The notes under the pieces: model-generated
Database searches by the model: none
Seen by the model: the letters and a program-made list of their open reading frames with translations, nothing else
Told to the model about the DNA's origin: nothing
Program-made: the position numbers and the translations under genes
Shown: in pieces, positions 7,872-60,740 of the stretch
Numbering within the stretch: the first letter of the stretch is position 1
Layout: the number at the start of each line of letters is the position of its first letter
Assembly: GCA_963796015.1 (NCBI GenBank)
Contig: CAWCJR010000002.1
Coordinates: forward strand, 21,657-85,656
Source: an uncultured Acidobacteriaceae bacterium
Lineage (GTDB): Bacteria; Acidobacteriota; Terriglobia; Terriglobales; Acidobacteriaceae
Direction: 5' to 3'
DNA length: 64,000 nucleotides

Positions 7872-8660
7872 TTACTGACTCTCCGTCACCACGCGTCCGT
7901 TAAGCGGCTGAGGCGGCCGGACATCGTGCGGATAAAGTCTGGCGAATGCGCTGATCTCCTCTGCCGAAATGTTCACCGGACTTTTTAGCACGAACCACGT
8001 GACGTTTTCACTGCATGGGGGAGCCGTTAGTGATCCCATATAGGTGTAGTAGGACGTATTTTCGGGCAGCAGATTCGCGGGGTTAACCTCGACTCCGGAA
8101 ATCTCCTGCTCTTTGCCCTCGGTCTTTGGCATATGTTCCCAAAGCTGCTGAATGGTGGCGTTCGCGCTGCCCGCCGTGAGAAGAACCGCGACTGCCGCAA
8201 CCTCCCCGCCGCTGGCTTGGTGCATGAAATGAATCACCATGTCATATGGCTTGCCGTGAACATACTCTTCGCTGGGCCGGTGAAAGTGAAATTGCGTTAG
8301 TTCGTATCGCTTGTCACCCACAATCAGAAAATTTCCATTTCCCCGAGCATAGTTCACCCGGACCGCTGTGTGGCCGTTATTGATAATTTTGAGCGGTCCC
8401 CTCTTATATTCGAATCGTATGGCGGGGAGGTCGGCTTTCTTGGTATTTCGAATGTCTATCGGAGATTGTTCCTTGCCGAGTTTGCACGGAACATACTGCG
8501 GATCAAGGTCACCCCAATGTTCGGGTCCGGTTACCCCTTCGTAACTCCACTGCGTTTTCCAGGCATTTGGGCCATGTTCAACGTCCTCTGCTCGGGGATG
8601 CGCAGGCACCAAAACCATCGTGACCGTCAGCAAAACAAGTATGACCGAATCTTTTCGCAA
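7872..8660 (-). CDS. alpha-class carbonic anhydrase, secreted
   Basis: Signal peptide, then HWGDL...QSPIDI, QFHFHRPSEEYVHGKPYDMVIHFMH (His-x-His plus His zinc ligands), and GSLTAPPCSENVTWFVL. Confidence 0.9.
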   Translation of the reverse strand: MRKDSVILVLLTVTMVLVPAHPRAEDVEHGPNAWKTQWSYEGVTGPEHWGDLDPQYVPCKLGKEQSPIDIRNTKKADLPAIRFEYKRGPLKIINNGHTAVRVNYARGNGNFLIVGDKRYELTQFHFHRPSEEYVHGKPYDMVIHFMHQASGGEVAAVAVLLTAGSANATIQQLWEHMPKTEGKEQEISGVEVNPANLLPENTSYYTYMGSLTAPPCSENVTWFVLKSPVNISAEEISAFARLYPHDVRPPQPLNGRVVTESQ

Positions 8661-51578: not shown

Positions 51579-53198
51579 CTAGGTTTTCGGGCGAATTCTT
51601 TCTGCAAGTTCACTTCGAGGCACGGAAACCTGTTCGCCGGTCTCCTGATTCTTGAGCGCGAACGCGCCGGTAACTACCTCGTTCTCACCGACAATCAGAA
51701 CTTGCCGCGCCCCAAGTTTGGCCGCAGTCTCAAAAGATTTTTTTAAGCGAAAAGTTTCGTCGCCAAGTTCGGTGACGATATCCTGACGACGAAGTTCTCG
51801 CGCGAGTCGCGCGGCCTCGCGGTCCATGCCTGCTCCAAGAGGCGCGATATAAACATCGGGCTTGGGCTGGACGGACTCCGCGGACTCCTGTAATGCCAGT
51901 GTCAGACGATCCTCGCCGATGGCGAAACCGATGCCGGGAGCTTGCGGTCCTCCGAGGGACTCGGAAAGTCCGTCATAGCGGCCGCCTCCGAGAATTGCGT
52001 TTTGCGCGCCCAGTGCTCCGTGCGTGAATTCGAAAGCCGTGCGAGTGTAGTAATCCAAGCCGCGCACCAGCCGGTCGTTTAAATGAAAATCAACCCCAAC
52101 GTATCTCAGGATTTCCTGAACCGCCTGAAAATGTTTTCGGCATGGCTCGTCGAGAAACTGGCTGATGCGCGGCAACGATTCGATGACTGGCTGATCTTCT
52201 GGAACTTTGCAGTCAAAAACTCGCAAAGGATTCGTCACCGCGCGGCGCTGGCAATCCGAGCACATGGTTGCGGCAACCGGTTCGATCGCTTTGCGCAACG
52301 CTTCGTTGTAGGCGGCGCGGTCGTTGGCGCAGCCGACCGAATTCAGTTGTAGAGTCCAGCCTTTGATTCCGAGCCGGTCAAGCAATGTCGCCAGCAGTTC
52401 GAGGATTTCCGCATCGCGCGCGGGCGACTCACTACCGGAGCTGGCCGGCCCAATCACTTCGGCGCCGATTTGATAGAACTGCCGGTAGCGTCCTTTCTGC
52501 GGACGCTCACGGCGAAACTGCGGGCCGATGTAGTAGAGCTTTTGCAGTCCGCGTTCTCCGAGATTGTGCTCGATGTAGGCGCGGACAACGCCCGCAGTGT
52601 TTTCGGGACGCAGGGTTAGCGACTGCGAGCTTGAGAAATAATTTCCGGGAAAGCCCTCTATTTCCACATCTTCCTTCTCGACCCATGGGGAACTGGTGGA
52701 CATTGTGTCCGGAACTACCAGGCGAAGGCGGATCGGAAGGTTAACGAATTCCTGTGAATAATGGCTTCTAGCAACGCCGCGGGCCTTCATCAAAGCAGCA
52801 ATTGAGTCCAAAGAAATCTTCGGTCGAAAGCACACGAATTCGACACTATTGGTTGCCTTCCGCCAAATCTGCCTCTGAATTCCCAGTGGTTTGATGCCGG
52901 ACAAAAATGGCGCTCCTTCTTGAAAAAAGACCCTGTCTTCGTTTGCCTTGGACCACGCGTCGAAAAGCTTCTTATCATCAAATCGTTCACCGCTCTCCCA
53001 CGTGTACATTTCTTTGGCGACAATGTCCGTTTCTTCTCCAACGCTTCGAGAAAAAAGTTCGGTGCTCTCAAAAATTGGTGTGCGAATCTCGTGGAAGTTA
53101 TAAGCGCGGAACACATCGCGTACCGTTGCTTCGGCGGAATTCCACAGCGCGGTTTCGGGCGGAAGAAGGTCGCGCGTTCCTCGGACAGCTTTAATCAT
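51579..53198 (-). CDS. hisS: histidine--tRNA ligase with a ~120-aa insertion in the catalytic core
   Basis: RGTRDLLP, KEMYTW, SLTLRPENTAG, YYIGPQFRRERPQKGRYRQFYQIGAEV and GGGRYDGL motifs, plus an anticodon-binding C-domain. It is 539 aa against the usual ~420 aa. The extra segment is residues ~69-192 (nt ~52623..52994). Confidence 0.9.
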   Translation of the reverse strand: MIKAVRGTRDLLPPETALWNSAEATVRDVFRAYNFHEIRTPIFESTELFSRSVGEETDIVAKEMYTWESGERFDDKKLFDAWSKANEDRVFFQEGAPFLSGIKPLGIQRQIWRKATNSVEFVCFRPKISLDSIAALMKARGVARSHYSQEFVNLPIRLRLVVPDTMSTSSPWVEKEDVEIEGFPGNYFSSSQSLTLRPENTAGVVRAYIEHNLGERGLQKLYYIGPQFRRERPQKGRYRQFYQIGAEVIGPASSGSESPARDAEILELLATLLDRLGIKGWTLQLNSVGCANDRAAYNEALRKAIEPVAATMCSDCQRRAVTNPLRVFDCKVPEDQPVIESLPRISQFLDEPCRKHFQAVQEILRYVGVDFHLNDRLVRGLDYYTRTAFEFTHGALGAQNAILGGGRYDGLSESLGGPQAPGIGFAIGEDRLTLALQESAESVQPKPDVYIAPLGAGMDREAARLARELRRQDIVTELGDETFRLKKSFETAAKLGARQVLIVGENEVVTGAFALKNQETGEQVSVPRSELAERIRPKT

Positions 53199-54075: not shown

Positions 54076-55341
54076 TTACTTTCCGGAAAGTTCAGGCGGA
54101 TCGAAAAAGCACTGCCTCCAGATCGCTTGGTCGGACACAGGGCCCGCAACCCATTCTTTCAGCATTCCTAATGTCGCGGCTATCATCCCGCCATCGTCCG
54201 AATCGAAAATCACTACAATCCCGGCAGGAGTGTCCGCGGCTGCCGCCACTGTTGAATACTCTTTCATGAACAACGCCTTGGCAAATTGAAGTCTTGCCTC
54301 CGCTCCGGTGGACCGTTCGTTTTCGTTCGCTTTTTGAACGGTGACAATCTTGACGATTTTTCCTCGGAGAGGTTCCCAATCGCCGGGGAATGGCGCGATT
54401 TGTTCATGGCTGATTCGAAACTCTTCGACCGCGTTTTGAGTTGCTACGCCAAGCTGCTTCGCGCCGGAAAAATCTTCGGGCATTTCCAGCGCGGAGCGGC
54501 GAATCCATCCGCGCGAAAGACCCGAAATCCGCACGTGCACCCAACTAGAGTTGATATCCAGGATTTCGAATTCGTCTCCCGCGGTTGCCGGAAATAAGAT
54601 TTTTGCATCGGCGTTGGGGCTCTGCAAAATTGGGGTGCCCGTTTTTTTGACTGCCGCTAAATTAGTGGGCTGGGCTTGGTTTTGCAGAATTTCTTCCAGG
54701 CTCTTGGCTTCCTCGGCCAATTCCTGCTCATGTTTCTCCAGGGCGTCAGTCTGCGATTGCAATGCTCCCGCGTTCGAATCCGGAAGCGCTATTGCCGAAG
54801 CGTGGAGAGCGCTTTCTGGGATGCGGGGCATCGGAGCTGAAATTGACGGCTCGTCCCCGTGGGCCACAGAGGCGGGAGGGGCTGAACTTTTTTCCTGCTC
54901 TGATCCTGCATTTCCTAAGCGCGTGCCCAGCGCGTCCCCAATCTGATCCAACAGGTCTGCTTCAATCCTCCCATTCGACGGCAAGGTCTGATACCCCGAA
55001 CGAGATACAACTGGATCCGCATACCACGCTGTGATTTTTGCGTTGACTCGAACTCTCGTGCCGCCTGATGGAAGGGCAATGATTTGAACCGTGCACTGAT
55101 AATATCCGCGCCGGAAGCGATCTAACGGGCGTTCTCCTGGAATTGTGAACCCATCCAACACGGGAAGACGCCCGGCAACCGAAGACGAGAGCGTCTTCAT
55201 AACTTTTTCAATCGCAACTTTGGATTGAGGAAACGTCCGTTCATTTGGGGAATTCTGATTCTCGCTGCAAGGAGTAACGACACAAGACGCAGTTAAGAAC
55301 AGAATCAATCCGCAGAGGCGTTGCCAGCGCTCACGTTTCAC
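54076..55341 (-). CDS. lipoprotein with N-terminal beta-domain, coiled-coil linker and bacterial SH3-like domain
   Basis: The probable GTG start at 55341 overlaps the upstream stop (GTGA). Lipobox LFLTASC. SH3b-like TPILQSPNADAKILFPATAGDEFEILDINSSWVHVRISGLSRGWIRRSAL. Confidence 0.6.
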   Translation of the reverse strand: MKRERWQRLCGLILFLTASCVVTPCSENQNSPNERTFPQSKVAIEKVMKTLSSSVAGRLPVLDGFTIPGERPLDRFRRGYYQCTVQIIALPSGGTRVRVNAKITAWYADPVVSRSGYQTLPSNGRIEADLLDQIGDALGTRLGNAGSEQEKSSAPPASVAHGDEPSISAPMPRIPESALHASAIALPDSNAGALQSQTDALEKHEQELAEEAKSLEEILQNQAQPTNLAAVKKTGTPILQSPNADAKILFPATAGDEFEILDINSSWVHVRISGLSRGWIRRSALEMPEDFSGAKQLGVATQNAVEEFRISHEQIAPFPGDWEPLRGKIVKIVTVQKANENERSTGAEARLQFAKALFMKEYSTVAAAADTPAGIVVIFDSDDGGMIAATLGMLKEWVAGPVSDQAIWRQCFFDPPELSGK

Positions 55342-56222
55342 GGCAAAGCCTCGACCTGGTCGTGAAAGAGCCACCCGTGTTGTCCGTCCTGAGTCTCGAT
55401 GCCGTACCAGTAAGGCGTCACAATCAAAATGACTACTTCCGTACCGGGGATGAGAGGTTTGAGCGTACTCGCGGTGTGAAAAGGCGCTGACTTGAGGGCC
55501 GCGCCGGAGGCCACGACTCGGCGTTCCACCTGGTGCCGTAAATCCTGTACGTGTTGTTCCATGGTCTGGCTTGAGACTCGAGCGGCGGCCAGGCGGGATG
55601 CTCCATTGTCGTCGGTGGGAGTACGACGCAGTTCGCGTCTGGCGAGGTCCAGTTCGCCTTTTTTGGTGGCCTCTTCGGTTTCTTTTTGCCGCAGGTGCAT
55701 CTGGTCGAGATGATCGGTAATGTCCTTATACTCACTGGATTCCACCATGCCGTCGGAAGGATGGACGGTTCGCCGAAAATCTTCGACAAAGACGGCGTCA
55801 ATACGCAAGTTGGTCTTGGCTGGGCCGGCGCTTTGCACGATGTATCGCACCGCGAGCGTGCCTACATCACCGCCTTCTTTGAAATTACGCGGATCCAGAG
55901 CTTCGGCACGAACCTTGTAAAAAGCCTTCCCTGGGCCGGTCCATGCAGGGAATACGGGCGTTGAGGCAACGGAAGACGCTCCACTAATGTTCTCGTCTTT
56001 GTTGTATTCCCTGGTTCCCTGGATGATCCCGTCGTCGGCGACGTCCTCCACCGCCTGCAAAACTTCGCTTTCGGGTGATTCGATTTCCACACGCAGGCCC
56101 GCGCCATAATCAACCCTCCTAGCCTTTTCGCGCGCTTGCAGCGGGGAGATCAATATGACCACGATGAGTGTCCCCAATAAAGCATGCAGCATTGAGAAAT
56201 AGTGTTCGCGTGAGATTCTCAT
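55338..56222 (-). CDS. secreted protein, paralogous architecture (beta-domain, coiled coil, C-terminal SH3-like domain)
   Basis: Signal/anchor LLGTLIVVILISPLQA. C-terminal SH3b-like LKSAPFHTASTLKPLIPGTEVVILIVTPYWYGIETQDGQHGWLFHDQV. Confidence 0.6.
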   Translation of the reverse strand: MRISREHYFSMLHALLGTLIVVILISPLQAREKARRVDYGAGLRVEIESPESEVLQAVEDVADDGIIQGTREYNKDENISGASSVASTPVFPAWTGPGKAFYKVRAEALDPRNFKEGGDVGTLAVRYIVQSAGPAKTNLRIDAVFVEDFRRTVHPSDGMVESSEYKDITDHLDQMHLRQKETEEATKKGELDLARRELRRTPTDDNGASRLAAARVSSQTMEQHVQDLRHQVERRVVASGAALKSAPFHTASTLKPLIPGTEVVILIVTPYWYGIETQDGQHGWLFHDQVEALP

Positions 56223-56515
56223 AAAACAAAACTAGTTTGAAATCACAGGCTTCATGGAGTCATCCGGTCACCAGGCAAACATTATCATTCATCATTCCCG
56301 AACGTACTCGAGTTATGGCCCATAGTCCCGGAATTTTTCATGCGCGGTATCGAATTGATTTCTGCATTCATTGTTTAGTTGCGTTGTCTCAGCATTTCTG
56401 ATTTTCTTGACACACGCATAACCGACATGATCATTTTGTGCGCTTCGCACGCACGTCTTGGGTGCGCGAAGAAGTCTGTGAGGGTGGTCTCGATTTGCCT
56501 GGTCAGGAGGGATGA

Positions 56516-57889
56516 ATGACTTCGTTCCGCAGAAGTCTTGCGTCTGGATTGCTTTTTGTCTTTGTAGTTCTCGGATTTTCCTCTGACGCCCACGCCTTAC
56601 CAGCCTTCGCCCGAAAATACGGACTGCGCTGTTCGGCATGCCACGAAGCATGGCCAATGCTCAATTATTTCGGACAGAAGTTCAAAGACAACGGCTATCA
56701 GTTGATGAATGACAGGGACTCGCCAATTTGGCAGAACCCATCATACTGGCCGGTAGTGTTTCGCATTACCCCAAACTGGCACCGGGAAAGCAGCAACAAG
56801 GTCTTGGTAGATACGCCTGCTGGCCCTAACTCTGGGGAAGTGCAAGTCACATCGCACGGTTTCGATCTTTCCGGTCTCGACTTCCACACCGCTGGAACGT
56901 TGGACAAGAACATTTCTTTCTATGTGCTTCCCTCGTCCGACGCCACGGCGTCTTTCCACTTTGAGCAGGTCTTCGCACGGCTCGACAACCTCTTTGGCAG
57001 TTCCTGGCTGAACGTAAAACTTGGCAAATTCGAACTCGATAACCTCGTTTCCGAAAAGAGAATCCTGACCCTGACGAGCATTTCCGGAATCTACCAGACT
57101 TATCACTTCATTCCGCAAGGCGACGGCAACATCTTCGGACAAATTGGAGATAACCAACTCGGTGTGGAATGGATGGGCCACTCCGTCAACGATCGTACCC
57201 GTGTCTCCGCTGCACTGCTGAGTTCCAGCGACGGCAATGTGAATCTTTCATATGGGAATTCTTACAGCGGTTTTTTTGCCGCCAGCCAGGCCTTCGACGT
57301 TGGAAGGCTGGGGGTGGACCGCATTGGCGCCTATGCCATGGTCGGAGAGGCTCCGACCACTTATTTAACGCAAAATAATGGAGCCAGCATCATTCCCGGC
57401 GCCGCGCTCGGAAATAAATCCTACAGCCGCGAGGGCTTCGTTGGATTGTTCTACTTTGGCAAACTTGATTTCCTTGCAGTCACTCAGCACGGCTCCGACA
57501 GCGCGTGGTTCGGCGCCGGATATGGCGATCTGCCCGGACGAACGATAACAAACAATAACATTCCTGGCACCGCGCTTCCCGCTGGAGCGCGTGCGCCGGC
57601 GTGGAATGGCTACATGCTGGAAACTCACTACGTTTACAACCCTCAATTGATATTCATTCAGCGGTCAGAATGGGAGCGCATGTCTCAGCAGGCGGATCCC
57701 AGCTAACGCATCCACTTTCGGCGATATTGACATGTACACCATCGGATATCGCTACTACCCCATTATGACCAGCCGTGCGGGCTTTGCATGGCACAACGAG
57801 TATTCGTGGACACGGCAACGTGGAACTGCTCCCGATGGCGGCGACCTCAGCAGCAGCAGTCTTTTACTCGGTTTTGACTTCGACTTCTA
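56516..57889 (+). pseudogene. Cyc2-like fused monoheme cytochrome c-porin (outer membrane); one frame disruption near the 3' end
   Basis: Signal peptide (..FSSDAHA|LP). Single CSACH at nt 56630..56644, within LPAFARKYGLRCSACHEAWPMLNYFGQKFKDNGY. The body is long and beta-strand-like. ORF 56516..57706 stops, but the +1 frame (57651..57889) continues as ..ANASTFGDIDMYTIGYRYYPIMTSRAGFAWHNEYSW...SSLLLGFDFDF*, a typical terminal OMP strand ending in Phe. The likely indel is at the C-run 57698..57700. Confidence 0.65.
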
Positions 57890-57901
57890 GAAGGGACGGC
57901 G

Positions 57902-58810
57902 ATGCGCGCAACTCTCCTGAAATCCCCGTTAGTCGTGAGCGCTACCGTGGGCGTATTTTTCGCGTTATCCGGCTTTTCTTCCGCACAGACTACGAAGTAC
58001 CAGGAAGATCAGCGGTTGGGAATGGAAAGCCACATCGGAAACGTAACCGGCCATGCCAAATCCGCTGAAGCTGACTACCGGCGTTATTGCGTGGGCTGTC
58101 ATGGCGAAGAAGGCGACGGAATGGGTGAGAACGAACCATGGCTCGACCCCAAACCCCGGAACTTCACGCTCGGCCAGTTCAAGTGCCGCTCTACCCCGAC
58201 TGGCACATTACCCACCGATGAGGATCTCTTCAATACGATCGCTCGCGGACTCGATCGTTCGAATATGCCCCAATGGAATACATTTACAAGGCAGCAGCAA
58301 GCTGACCTGGTTGCATACGTCAAACACTTCTCGCCAAAGTTCCAGACGGAGAAGCCCGGGACTCCGATACAGATTCCTTCTGAACCGGAAGTCACCGCGG
58401 ATAGGATTAAAGGCGGCCAGATATTGTTCCAAAAGCTGGAATGCTGGAAGTGTCATGGTGTCGAAGGAAGGGCGAACGGCCCTTCGGCCGACACTTTGCA
58501 GGATGATGAGAACCGTCCCATCAAGGCGTACGACTTCACTGAGGGCGCCCGGCCTAAGTGTGGAAGTTCCGATCAGGATCTCTATCGAATCTTTATGACC
58601 GGGCTGGACGGCACTCCAATGCCATCCTACGCCGACAACGTTAAGCCGGAAGAAGCTTGGGAGTTGGTTTTTTACTTGCGCACGTTGCAACCGATGCACT
58701 CTAAAGAAAAGGAAATTGCCAAGCAACTTGGATTGAAGCCAATTGATCCAAATGCGCCGGTTCCGGAGACAACGCCTGCGGCAACGCCGGCGCCTGCTCC
58801 TCAACACTAA
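57902..58810 (+). CDS. periplasmic diheme c-type cytochrome
   Basis: Signal peptide. Two class-I modules with CVGCH and CWKCH, each followed by a ..MP.. Met-ligand region (SNMPQW, GTPMPSY). Starts 12 nt after the porin stop. Confidence 0.85.
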   Translation: MRATLLKSPLVVSATVGVFFALSGFSSAQTTKYQEDQRLGMESHIGNVTGHAKSAEADYRRYCVGCHGEEGDGMGENEPWLDPKPRNFTLGQFKCRSTPTGTLPTDEDLFNTIARGLDRSNMPQWNTFTRQQQADLVAYVKHFSPKFQTEKPGTPIQIPSEPEVTADRIKGGQILFQKLECWKCHGVEGRANGPSADTLQDDENRPIKAYDFTEGARPKCGSSDQDLYRIFMTGLDGTPMPSYADNVKPEEAWELVFYLRTLQPMHSKEKEIAKQLGLKPIDPNAPVPETTPAATPAPAPQH

Positions 58811-58829
58811 ACCAGATCGGGAGCATTCC

Positions 58830-59570
58830 ATGAAGACCGGATACAAATACAAGTTGGCCGCACTCTCTAGTGCATTCCTATTGCTGGCGCTTGTAGTAAT
58901 CATGGGCCGAAAGGCGGATGCTGCCCCGCCAACCGGAAGCAGTATCACTGGGACTGTAAAGCTCACTGGGACGCCTCCGCAGGAGAAAGCGATTGATATG
59001 TCAGCGGAACCGAGTTGCGCGAAGGAACACGCCGGCAGTCCGCTCAGAGCGGAACACGTTGTTGTAGGCCCGAATGGAGGCCTGCAAAACGTTGTCATCT
59101 ACGTTTCGCAGGGTCTCTCAGGCAATGAGGCGGCCTCTACCGAGGTGCAAACCTGGAATCAAAAGGGCTGCCAGTATATTCCCCATGTTCTCGCGCTAAA
59201 CCCGGGCCAGCACTTCAAAGTCGTAAACAGTGATCAAACATCCCACAACATCCATCCGCAACCCAGGAACAATTCAGAATGGAATAAAGCACAGCAGCCG
59301 GGATCTCCAGCTTTCGATTTAACGTGGGCGAATCCGGAAATCCCAATCATCGTGAAGTGCAACATTCATCCCTGGATGCGTGGTTATATGGCAGTCGTAA
59401 AGGGACCATACGCGGTCACCGATAACACTGGCGACTTCAGGCTTGATGGATTGGCGCCGGGCAGCTACACATTAACCGCATGGCAAGAAGAGTATGGAAC
59501 GCAGACTCAGAAAGTGACCGTAGCGGCAGGGAAACCAACCTCGGTGAGCTTTACCTATAAGGCGAAGTAG
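58830..59570 (+). CDS. secreted cupredoxin-core protein flanked by CarboxypepD_reg-like segments (MauL-like)
   Basis: ATG 58830 follows GGGAG, 19 nt after the upstream stop. ITGTVKLTG.. at the N-terminus and TDNTGDFRLDGLAPGSYTLTAW.. at the C-terminus are CarboxypepD_reg-like. The core has VVNSDQTSHNIHP and VKCNIHPWMRGYMAVV (Cys-X2-His-X2-Met). Confidence 0.7.
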   Translation: MKTGYKYKLAALSSAFLLLALVVIMGRKADAAPPTGSSITGTVKLTGTPPQEKAIDMSAEPSCAKEHAGSPLRAEHVVVGPNGGLQNVVIYVSQGLSGNEAASTEVQTWNQKGCQYIPHVLALNPGQHFKVVNSDQTSHNIHPQPRNNSEWNKAQQPGSPAFDLTWANPEIPIIVKCNIHPWMRGYMAVVKGPYAVTDNTGDFRLDGLAPGSYTLTAWQEEYGTQTQKVTVAAGKPTSVSFTYKAK

Positions 59571-59840
59571 AAAATGGCGATGATTCTTTCCGGGGCCGCC
59601 AATCGTCGCATATGATTATTTATGACCTGACAGCTTCGAATACTGGTGGGCGCGCCATTTTCCAGTTACCATTGTAGGTTCGGCTAAACTGACTGATACG
59701 GACGGGCTCACAAGTCACGACAATCCTCCATCAGGACTAGTGGTGCTGCTTATTTTGCTGCCGGCGTTTTCGCAAAGTTACCGGCAAAGGGATTTAGGCG
59801 GCTCCGCGCGGAACCAAATGGACACTGGTAACAGGAGAGC

Positions 59841-60740
59841 ATGACCACAACTCAAGTAATGGCGCCGCCAGGCGACAGGCGAGACTTTAAATCCAAGCTG
59901 CGCGATTTTTATACGCTGACCAAGCCGGAAGTGAATCTGTTGATTCTGATGACCACGTCAGCCGGCTACTATCTTGCATCGCGGGGATCGTTCAGATTTT
60001 CTGGCCTCGTCAACACTCTGTTCGGAACGTTGCTCGTAGCCAGCGGAACTGCGACTCTGAATCAATGGATGGAGCGGGTTTGGGATGGCCAAATGCGCCG
60101 TACCGCGAACCGGCCCATGCCATCCGGACGGATGAGTTCCATTCACGCACTTATTTTCGGAATGCTTCTCAGCATTGGCGGCGGGGTATATCTTTTCGCA
60201 ACCGTTAATACTTTGTCGGCGGTTCTCGCAATTTCAACGTTGCTTTCCTATCTTCTTGTCTATACTCCCTTGAAGCGGATAACCCCGCTCTGTACGCTGC
60301 TCGGCGCAATTCCCGGCGCGATGCCAACTTTGATCGGATGGGCAGGAGGATCGGGCCGCATTGACCCGCAGGCATGGTACCTTTTCGCGATCCTGTTTCT
60401 CTGGCAGTTCCCTCACTTCCTGGCTATCGCGCTGATGTACCGCGACGATTATGCCCGCGCGGGTTACAGAATGCTCCCCCAATTTGACCGGGACAACCGT
60501 TTTACGCGGTCAGAAATCGTATTTTTTACTCTTGCCCTCATCGTTACCACCATGCTGCCTTTCATTGACCGCGGCGGATCTTATTATGTCGCCGCAATGT
60601 TCGTCGCGGGGGCATTCCTGCTTTATCACTCGCTCAAACTCTCTACCTCCACTTCGACAGTCGTCGCCAGAAAACTGGTTCATGCTTCCGTAATCTACTT
60701 GCCAGTAGTTTTGGTGATTATGTCGGTGCTAAAACGCTAG
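59841..60740 (+). CDS. ctaB: protoheme IX farnesyltransferase (heme O synthase)
   Basis: 299 aa and ~8 TM helices. LTKPEVNLLILMTT, NQWMERVWDGQMRRTANRPMPSGR and LFLWQFPHFLAIALMYRDDY are UbiA-family CyoE/CtaB motifs. Confidence 0.9.
   Translation: MTTTQVMAPPGDRRDFKSKLRDFYTLTKPEVNLLILMTTSAGYYLASRGSFRFSGLVNTLFGTLLVASGTATLNQWMERVWDGQMRRTANRPMPSGRMSSIHALIFGMLLSIGGGVYLFATVNTLSAVLAISTLLSYLLVYTPLKRITPLCTLLGAIPGAMPTLIGWAGGSGRIDPQAWYLFAILFLWQFPHFLAIALMYRDDYARAGYRMLPQFDRDNRFTRSEIVFFTLALIVTTMLPFIDRGGSYYVAAMFVAGAFLLYHSLKLSTSTSTVVARKLVHASVIYLPVVLVIMSVLKR

Follow-up and report, generated by a model that had tools for sequence, protein, structure and literature searches.

A probable degraded copy of a lineage-wide Cyc2-type electron-uptake and aa3 respiratory operon in an uncultured Acidobacteriaceae bacterium

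The stretch of DNA analysed here, 64 kb from an uncultured Acidobacteriaceae bacterium and referred to below as the window, carries a compact cluster of genes for a predicted Cyc2-type cytochrome–porin (gene 1), a diheme cytochrome c (gene 2) and a predicted cupredoxin (gene 3), followed by ctaB (gene 4), which encodes heme O synthase. A first-pass annotation of the bare sequence had described three same-strand genes with characteristic motifs and Shine-Dalgarno (SD)-like runs, followed by heme O synthase, and had read them as an electron-uptake module analogous to the Acidithiobacillus ferrooxidans rus operon. The open reading frame (ORF) listing and direct reading of the DNA bear out the four genes, their motifs and the SD-like runs, which are AGGAGG, AAGGGA and GGAG ahead of genes 1, 2 and 3. 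The spacers had been given as 12, 19 and 270 nt; the second and third are right, and the first is 11 nt. Gene 4 is heme O synthase as proposed, scoring 265 bits against the TIGR01473 cutoff of 210.3, with 184 bits for Pfam UbiA. The features of the cluster are as follows.

56516..57890, plus strand: gene 1, predicted Cyc2-type fused monoheme cytochrome c–porin with a +1 frameshift (motifs, intact orthologues, structural model)
57698..57700, plus strand: CCC run with a one-base insertion, the gene 1 frameshift (deleting one C restores collinearity with the intact orthologue P0001)
57902..58810, plus strand: gene 2, secreted diheme class-I cytochrome c (Pfam, match in the PDB)
58830..59570, plus strand: gene 3, secreted or anchored predicted cupredoxin within a CarboxypepD_reg Ig-like domain (Pfam, conservation, fold)
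59615..59672, plus strand: remnant of the 3' end of coxD, a deletion scar (alignment to the relatives' loci L004 and L006)
59734..59778, plus strand: remnant of a small ORF with a CxxC motif (frame-1 match to L004)
59841..60740, plus strand: gene 4, ctaB/cyoE heme O synthase, with which the ancestral operon ends (TIGR01473, Pfam UbiA)

A scan of GTDB species genomes with gene 1 yielded 491 species representatives that carry a relative of it. Loci were compared for the best 80 of these 491 relatives, with 81 loci fetched; presence counts refer to these 81 loci, and the motif scans of genes 1 and 2 cover 79. The best 80 relatives are all metagenome-assembled genomes (MAGs), nearly all of them labelled Terriglobales, Terriglobia or Acidobacteriaceae (Acidobacteriota lineage), including Candidatus Sulfotelmatobacter, and one labelled Candidatus Eisenbacteria. 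The closest relatives of the window are L001/L002 and L003, and gene 1 is 97-98% identical across the three assemblies (window, L001/L002 and L003).

Gene 1 begins with a signal peptide, recognised by inspection as MTSFRRSLASGLLFVFVVLGFSSDAHA then LPAF, with a charged n-region, a hydrophobic core and AHA ahead of the motif region; the sequence after it is ALPAFARKYGLRCSACHEAWPML. There is a single CXXCH, CSACH at residues 39-43, inside LPAFARKYGLRCSACHEAWPMLNYFGQKFKDNGY. The Cyc2 family has been defined by a signal peptide, one CXXCH, AXPXFAR[Q/K][T/Y] upstream of it and PXL 4 residues downstream (Keffer 2021, PMC8406198). The upstream motif is called unique to Cyc2 by its authors, who further list a length of at least 365 amino acids (aa) and a 16-stranded OprO/OprP-like porin (PMC8406198). 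Gene 1, which reads AHA then LPAFARKYGLRCSACHEAWPML, shows every sequence element of this definition: the upstream motif appears as ALPAFARKY-GLR-CSACH, the PXL motif as CSACH-EAW-PML, and the protein has 457 aa once the frameshift is repaired, although as encoded in the window it stops at 396 aa. The Y and the C lie 3 residues apart in gene 1, a spacing for which the published wording, '5 residues upstream', is ambiguous (PMC8406198). The statement in the first-pass annotation that FAR(K/Q)Y....C..CH is typical of Cyc2 N-termini agrees with the published definition. The motif region is also strongly conserved: A[LI]PAFARKYGLRCSACHE[AS]WP[MQ]L is carried by gene 1 in 78 of the 79 loci scanned, and residues 29-66 are almost invariant across 55 sequences.

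We modelled the fold on P0001, an intact 457-aa orthologue that is 97% identical to gene 1, using AlphaFold2 (AF2) on a 55-sequence alignment. Consistent with the expectation of 16-18 strands, the model is a barrel of ~16-18 strands over residues 80-456, of moderate confidence (predicted local distance difference test, pLDDT, 66.7; predicted TM-score, pTM, 0.65). In a Foldseek search with this model, OprP (2o4v) ranked first (E=2.5e-10) and OprO (4rjw) 15th, with further 16-stranded porins among the matches. The barrel reading gains support because OprP and OprO are the templates reported for Cyc2 by Keffer et al. (PMC8406198). Gene 1 had no match in Pfam or NCBIfam, and its profile had none among PDB sequences even at E<=10. 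A profile search of 1.84 billion representatives at a threshold of E<=1e-3 returned 2791 clusters at 50% identity, and distant full-length family members retain PxFA[RK][KQR][YT]...CxxCH...PxL and a terminal aromatic residue. Since both the published motif definition and the predicted fold fit, gene 1 can be assigned as a predicted member of the Cyc2 fused cytochrome–porin family, as had been proposed. It would share with Cyc2PV-1 of Mariprofundus, Cyc2 of A. ferrooxidans and Cyt572 of Leptospirillum the signal peptide, the one CXXCH, AXPXFAR[Q/K][T/Y], PXL, a length of ~450 aa and the OprO/OprP-like barrel; the gene 1 clade differs from these characterised members by its extreme conservation. 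Cyt572 has been linked to a dense cluster of Acidobacteria and Nitrospira homologues in a network study (PMC10654088).

Gene 2 encodes two cytochrome c domains, with Pfam Cytochrom_C and Cytochrome_CBB3 each matching two stretches. It was found in 77 of the 79 loci scanned, with two CXXCH motifs in every one of these. Among solved structures it is closest to PDB 6H5L chain B (E=6.9e-60, ~208 residues aligned, both heme motifs included), a diheme cytochrome of Kuenenia stuttgartiensis crystallised with its redox partner, an HAO-like octaheme protein that we take to be Kustc0457. The contexts differ: the partner there is an anammoxosome HAO-like enzyme, and the neighbours here are a Cyc2-like porin and an aa3 oxidase; unlike 6H5L_B, gene 2 also has a Pro/Ala-rich C-terminal tail. 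No c4/Cyc1 structure in the PDB matched gene 2 even at E<=10, and we reject that assignment; the best match is 6H5L_B. Also rejected was 'cytochrome 579', for which the match was partial and reached 41 bits against a cutoff of 280. Gene 2 is thus best viewed as a putative functional analogue of Cyc1 and not its orthologue.

The pairing of genes 1 and 2 extends beyond the Terriglobales. A homologue search with a distant FARQY-motif member (P0388) gave 22 matches, one labelled Myxococcales, and none of the 22 provided a link to known iron oxidisers. In this distant clade, which includes a Myxococcales MAG, a Cyc2-like gene (32% identical) is followed by a gene 2 relative (51% identical). This suggests that the pair is an ancient core to which the cupredoxin and the oxidase were added in the Terriglobales lineage. 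At two loci of the distant clade (L084 8001-10146 and L085 8001-10212), the Cyc2-like gene overlaps the gene 2 orthologue by ~10 nt, and the pair is flanked by Lactonase/beta-propeller and RoxA-like cytochrome genes, not by an oxidase.

Gene 3 carries SHNIH and CNIHPWM, with Pfam CarboxypepD_reg at its C-terminal residues 194-242. The candidate type-1 copper site is H139/C177/H180/M183; across 50 homologues H139, H180 and M183 are invariant and C177 is conserved in at least 90%, and Cys63, His67 and Cys114 are invariant as well. No significant Pfam cupredoxin match was obtained, and the NCBIfam scan gave only a weak S-layer match; many homologues are named 'plastocyanin' by the Joint Genome Institute (JGI). 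In an AF2 model (pLDDT 81.4), the central domain resembled amicyanin, pseudoazurin, plastocyanin, the Nitrosopumilus purple cupredoxin 5fc9 and CuA domains in Foldseek, with target TM-scores of 0.55-0.79, and this domain interrupts a CarboxypepD_reg Ig-like domain after its first strand. The predicted fold and the conserved His/Cys/His/Met ligands point to a type-1 copper cupredoxin, as the first-pass annotation had held, with copper binding predicted. Gene 3 would share with the small type-1 cupredoxins (amicyanin, pseudoazurin, plastocyanin, 5FC9) the fold, a Cys-X2-His-X2-Met loop of amicyanin length and the upstream His; unlike them, it is inserted in CarboxypepD_reg and has the extra invariant Cys63, His67 and Cys114. 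PDB searches detected no sequence similarity to rusticyanin or AcoP, and neither was among the top 50 fold matches.

The triad is a stable unit in the relatives. Genes 1, 2 and 3 were detected in 81, 81 and 80 of the loci, and the triad is syntenic in 80 of 81, with invariant motifs, so its arrangement is more than chance. In 76 loci an oxidase operon directly follows gene 3, in the order coxB-coxA-coxC-coxC'-coxD, a small CxxC ORF and, in most loci, ctaB. Individually, coxB was found in 76, coxA in 74, coxC and coxC' in 72 and coxD in 70 loci, and the genes of one such locus (L006) match Pfam COX2, COX1, COX3, COX3 and COX4_pro. Independent gene calls for two loci (L082/L083) recover all ten genes, which either overlap or lie 12-90 nt apart. 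The complete chromosomes OY970291.1 and OY970199.1 contain the operon in full. CoxB carries the CuA motif CTQLCGLGHYNM and has no fused heme c, and therefore needs a soluble donor. The small ORF between coxD and ctaB, conserved in 70 loci, spans ~88 aa with two hydrophobic, probably transmembrane, segments and a C-x-x-C motif (SQSCALCYTQ); it lies at 17520-17822 in L006 and 17504-17773 in L082, and is called as an 89-aa gene in L082/L083. It matched no Pfam family and may be an oxidase assembly or copper/thiol factor. In most loci the cluster has a ctaB of the window type (66-97% identity) downstream of it; a subgroup yielded just a ~44%-identical ctaB paralogue, upstream and on the minus strand. 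Some relatives (L065 13473-14330) have a STAS-domain protein between the cupredoxin gene and coxB.

The ancestral order, then, is Cyc2-type porin, diheme cytochrome c, cupredoxin, coxB, coxA, coxC, coxC', coxD, small CxxC protein and ctaB. The Acidithiobacillus rus operon runs cyc2-cyc1-cup-coxBACD-...-ctaB (PMC10654088). The relatives' version is collinear with it and made of the same functional types, namely a fused cytochrome–porin, a diheme cytochrome c, a cupredoxin, aa3 subunits and heme O synthase. The two operons differ in several parts. In place of the c4-type Cyc1 of rus there is a 6H5L_B-type cytochrome, and the cupredoxin is embedded in CarboxypepD_reg, with no sequence match to rusticyanin or AcoP. 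The relatives' cluster has two CoxC-like genes and the small CxxC ORF, and it lacks the second cupredoxin of rus and ctaA. The host is an uncultured Acidobacteriota lineage, with all fetched loci from MAGs, and in the window copy the cox genes are deleted. The analogy to the rus triad drawn in the first-pass annotation is much strengthened by the aa3 operon between gene 3 and ctaB in 76 relatives, but not by gene 2, which is no homologue of Cyc1 or c4 cytochromes; overall, that interpretation is partly supported.

Neither coxA nor coxB occurs anywhere within the 64-kb window, so the rus-type arrangement of aa3 genes within the cyc2 operon is absent here. The first-pass annotation had suggested looking for a terminal oxidase just outside the window; instead, the cox genes have been deleted from the locus itself, and fragments of coxD and the small ORF survive in the 270-nt spacer before ctaB. 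The junction 59610|59615 of the window joins positions 8540|12844 of L004, leaving ~4.3 kb missing. In frame 0, LRILVGAPFSSYH (59634-59672) corresponds to the last 13 codons of CoxD and matches L004 (FRILVGAPFSSYH, then stop) and L006. In frame 1, GLVVLLILLPAFSQS (59734-59778) is the start of the small ORF and matches GLVVLLIPLPAFSQSCALCYTQ of L004, with the remainder lost in a second deletion of ~140 nt. Because these fragments remain, we conclude that the window lineage underwent deletion, and reject an insertion of the oxidase genes in the relatives. The cox genes are missing in three independent assemblies (window, L001/L002 and L003). A terminator scan between gene 3 and ctaB found none.

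What remains after the deletion has been maintained by selection. Pairwise ratios of nonsynonymous to synonymous substitution rates (dN/dS), with comparisons inside the cox-less subclade included, are 0.03-0.07 for gene 1, 0.04-0.15 for gene 2, 0.07-0.23 for gene 3 and 0.07-0.13 for ctaB. These low values suggest that the triad is still under purifying selection after loss of the oxidase, and would thus have stayed useful. Retention of ctaB implies that another heme O/A oxidase is encoded elsewhere in the genome.

The window copy of gene 1 is itself interrupted. Its reading frame 2 (56516..57706 in the ORF listing) encodes 396 aa and ends with TAA at 57704-57706; the gene resumes in frame 0 from ~57699 and ends with TAG at 57888-57890, giving the C-terminus LLLGFDFDF. 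Deleting one C from the CCC run at 57698-57700 yields a 457-aa protein collinear with intact orthologues, which are 448-498 aa long; the repaired protein reads QQADPANASTFGDIDMY at this point, where P0001 has QQADPTSASNFGDVDMY. If real, the frameshift would cut off the last barrel strands, but it may be a homopolymer sequencing error. It is unique to the window.

A somewhat doubtful explanation is that this copy is dead, with the frameshift real, the oxidase gone, the triad decaying and nothing functional encoded. Over the 17 kb that can be compared with L001, gene 1 alone among 16 shared genes is broken across two frames, so we reject a generally frameshift-ridden assembly, and this favours a real lesion. 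The gene 1 changes on the window branch are also enriched in nonsynonymous ones (5 nonsynonymous:5 synonymous versus 6:47 in L001 and L003; Fisher p=0.01, with small counts), a weak hint of relaxed constraint, and the cox genes and the small ORF are deleted. On the other hand, a frameshift in a homopolymer is what errors in sequencing or assembly typically produce, genes 2, 3 and ctaB are intact, the promoter described below is conserved, and the cox-less sister genomes hold an intact 457-aa gene 1 under purifying selection. The window-branch counts are tiny, and at least 3 of the residues at which the window's gene 1 differs from its closest orthologues fall in one variable loop beside the frameshift.

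We consider that the locus probably derives, in degraded form, from a Cyc2-type electron-uptake/aa3 respiratory operon found lineage-wide in uncultured Terriglobales. The analysis shows which genes are present, with their motifs and predicted folds, their synteny, the scar left by the deletion and the pattern of selection; around these we infer the electron donor, the direction of flow, and the order of the carriers and their docking to the oxidase, in the following scheme. In intact relatives, the outer-membrane monoheme cytochrome–porin would oxidise a dissolved reductant, extracellular or entering the periplasm, most likely Fe2+ by analogy. The diheme cytochrome c of the periplasm, the cupredoxin or both would then take up the electrons, and these carriers would reduce the CuA of the co-encoded aa3-type oxidase, which would reduce O2 and pump protons; ctaB would supply heme O, from which heme A is made. 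In the window and its two nearest relatives, where the ~4.3-kb deletion took the oxidase genes, the triad was kept and would presumably feed an oxidase encoded elsewhere.

The choice of donor in this scheme follows the characterised Cyc2 proteins, by analogy with which the gene 1 clade would oxidise Fe(II). All biochemically characterised members, namely A. ferrooxidans Cyc2, Leptospirillum Cyt572 and Mariprofundus Cyc2PV-1, oxidise Fe(II) (PMC8406198; PMC7029218), and the small pore has been argued to admit only dissolved Fe2+ (Keffer et al., PMC8406198). These points make it unlikely that the operon is a general extracellular-electron-uptake branch of aerobic respiration, and not an Fe2+ oxidase, drawing on another dissolved reductant that is plentiful in peat and soil, for instance Mn(II), organically complexed Fe(II), or humic or quinone compounds in reduced form. 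Such a role does have evidence in its favour: nothing in the sequence specifies the donor; the carriers, all MAGs, include some with peat-related isolate labels (palsa, SPRUCE) or the name Ca. Sulfotelmatobacter; and Cyc2 homologues have been proposed for Mn(II) lithotrophy and are present in non-iron-oxidisers (PMC9040806; PMC7029218).

Two further alternatives concern the role of the module and the direction of electron flow. In the first, the module would be protective: surface oxidation of Fe2+, coupled to O2 use by a low-affinity aa3 oxidase, would limit Fenton chemistry and oxidative stress in heterotrophs at oxic-anoxic interfaces. The carrier lineage is generally regarded as organoheterotrophic, no carbon-fixation genes adjoin the cluster, and the window lineage could drop its dedicated oxidase yet keep the triad. 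O2 scavenging by aa3 oxidases has moreover been discussed for Acidobacteria (PMC9599518). An A-family oxidase with CoxC and CoxD pumps protons, however, so that electron flow through it conserves energy regardless, and the strong constraint on gene 1 together with the tight organisation of the operon also speaks against protection, which we judge quite improbable. In the second, electrons would flow outward, with the cytochrome–porin passing electrons from respiration to Fe(III) or humics outside the cell. In principle, a monoheme porin-cytochrome could run either way, and iron reduction is known in some Acidobacteria; but the co-operonic O2-reducing aa3 oxidase and heme biosynthesis gene in 76 loci fit uptake and not export, and the cluster holds no multiheme cytochromes, which makes outward flow very improbable.

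Several points weigh against an electron-uptake operon as the source of this locus. Gene 1 is placed in Cyc2 by motif and predicted fold and not by alignment to a characterised Cyc2, and its moderate-confidence model leaves out the heme domain (residues 23-77). Genes 2 and 3 are no sequence homologues of Cyc1, rusticyanin or AcoP, and the clade is known here from genes alone. The module in the window is without its oxidase; because of this loss, the frameshift and the skewed branch counts, the window copy may be non-functional. Finally, some organisms not known to oxidise iron, nitrifying Nitrospirales among them, have Cyc2 homologues, and Mn(II) oxidation has been proposed as a role of Cyc2 homologues (PMC7029218; PMC9040806). 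The presence of homologues in non-iron-oxidisers leads us to place moderate confidence in the functional claim.

Cyc2 is the main genetic marker for inferring microbial iron oxidation, and its meaning is disputed outside a few chemolithotroph groups because homologues sit in organisms without known iron metabolism. Here, in 76 of 81 loci, a Cyc2-type gene comes first in an operon that also encodes two periplasmic carriers, a complete aa3 oxidase and heme O synthase, following the logic of rus, the only genetically well-defined iron-oxidation operon. What is new is that a major uncultured lineage of soil bacteria has a rus-like operon in which the diheme cytochrome is a different one and the cupredoxin is inserted in another domain. 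Full-text literature searches returned cyc2 in Acidobacteriota only as survey-level mentions in metagenome surveys; they found no paper joining cyc2 with Terriglobales, Acidobacteriaceae or Sulfotelmatobacter, and no description of the operon. Tentatively, hundreds of uncultured Terriglobales species might use it for O2 respiration on extracellular Fe(II), on reduced humics or on Mn(II). If so, they would form a large unrecognised guild of litho-heterotrophic metal oxidisers in soil, and the cox-less subclade would be evidence that another oxidase can be coupled to the uptake triad. Oxidation of iron, or of another extracellular reductant, by uncultured soil Acidobacteriota thereby becomes a testable hypothesis, for which the intact operon, the triad without oxidase and the triad with a broken porin offer a natural 'deletion series' for dissecting the parts needed.

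Upstream of the cluster lie further features that may belong with it.

56407..56434, plus strand: promoter-like TTGACA-N16-GATCAT upstream of gene 1 (consensus scan, 10/12 matches)
56438..56450, plus strand: palindrome GTGCG-CTT-CGCAC just 3' of the -10 element, a candidate operator or hairpin in the 5' untranslated region (5'-UTR), its function being putative
54076..56222, minus strand: two divergent genes for secreted proteins, up1 (55338..56222) and up2 (54076..55374, SH3_3), which co-occur with the cluster

The number of promoter-like hits alone is not above chance (2 found, 4 expected), and the TTGACA and (G/A)TGAT(A/C)AT elements are conserved in 13 of 14 aligned relatives. Across the upstream alignment of L001-L025 their arrangement is TTGACA-N16/17-(G/A)TGAT(A/C)AT. 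In most relatives a palindrome of the form AGTGCG-N6-CGCACT occupies the same place, and GTGCG-CTT-CGCAC is the form of the window subclade. A TetR-family gene stands immediately upstream of the cluster in some relatives (L082/L083); together with the palindrome it suggests a repressor-operator pair.

Further upstream, the histidyl-tRNA synthetase gene (51579-53198, minus strand) carries, relative to its 425-aa L001 orthologue, an in-frame insertion (~52626-52967, with no Pfam match and no obvious flanking repeats) that adds ~114 aa after residue ~76. The products of up1 and up2 are paralogue-like, and the two genes adjoin the cluster in 75-76 of the 81 loci. On their far side, a subgroup of loci (L065 is one) has another CarboxypepD_reg protein and a second, 44%-identical paralogue of ctaB, so up1 and up2 may be part of the module.

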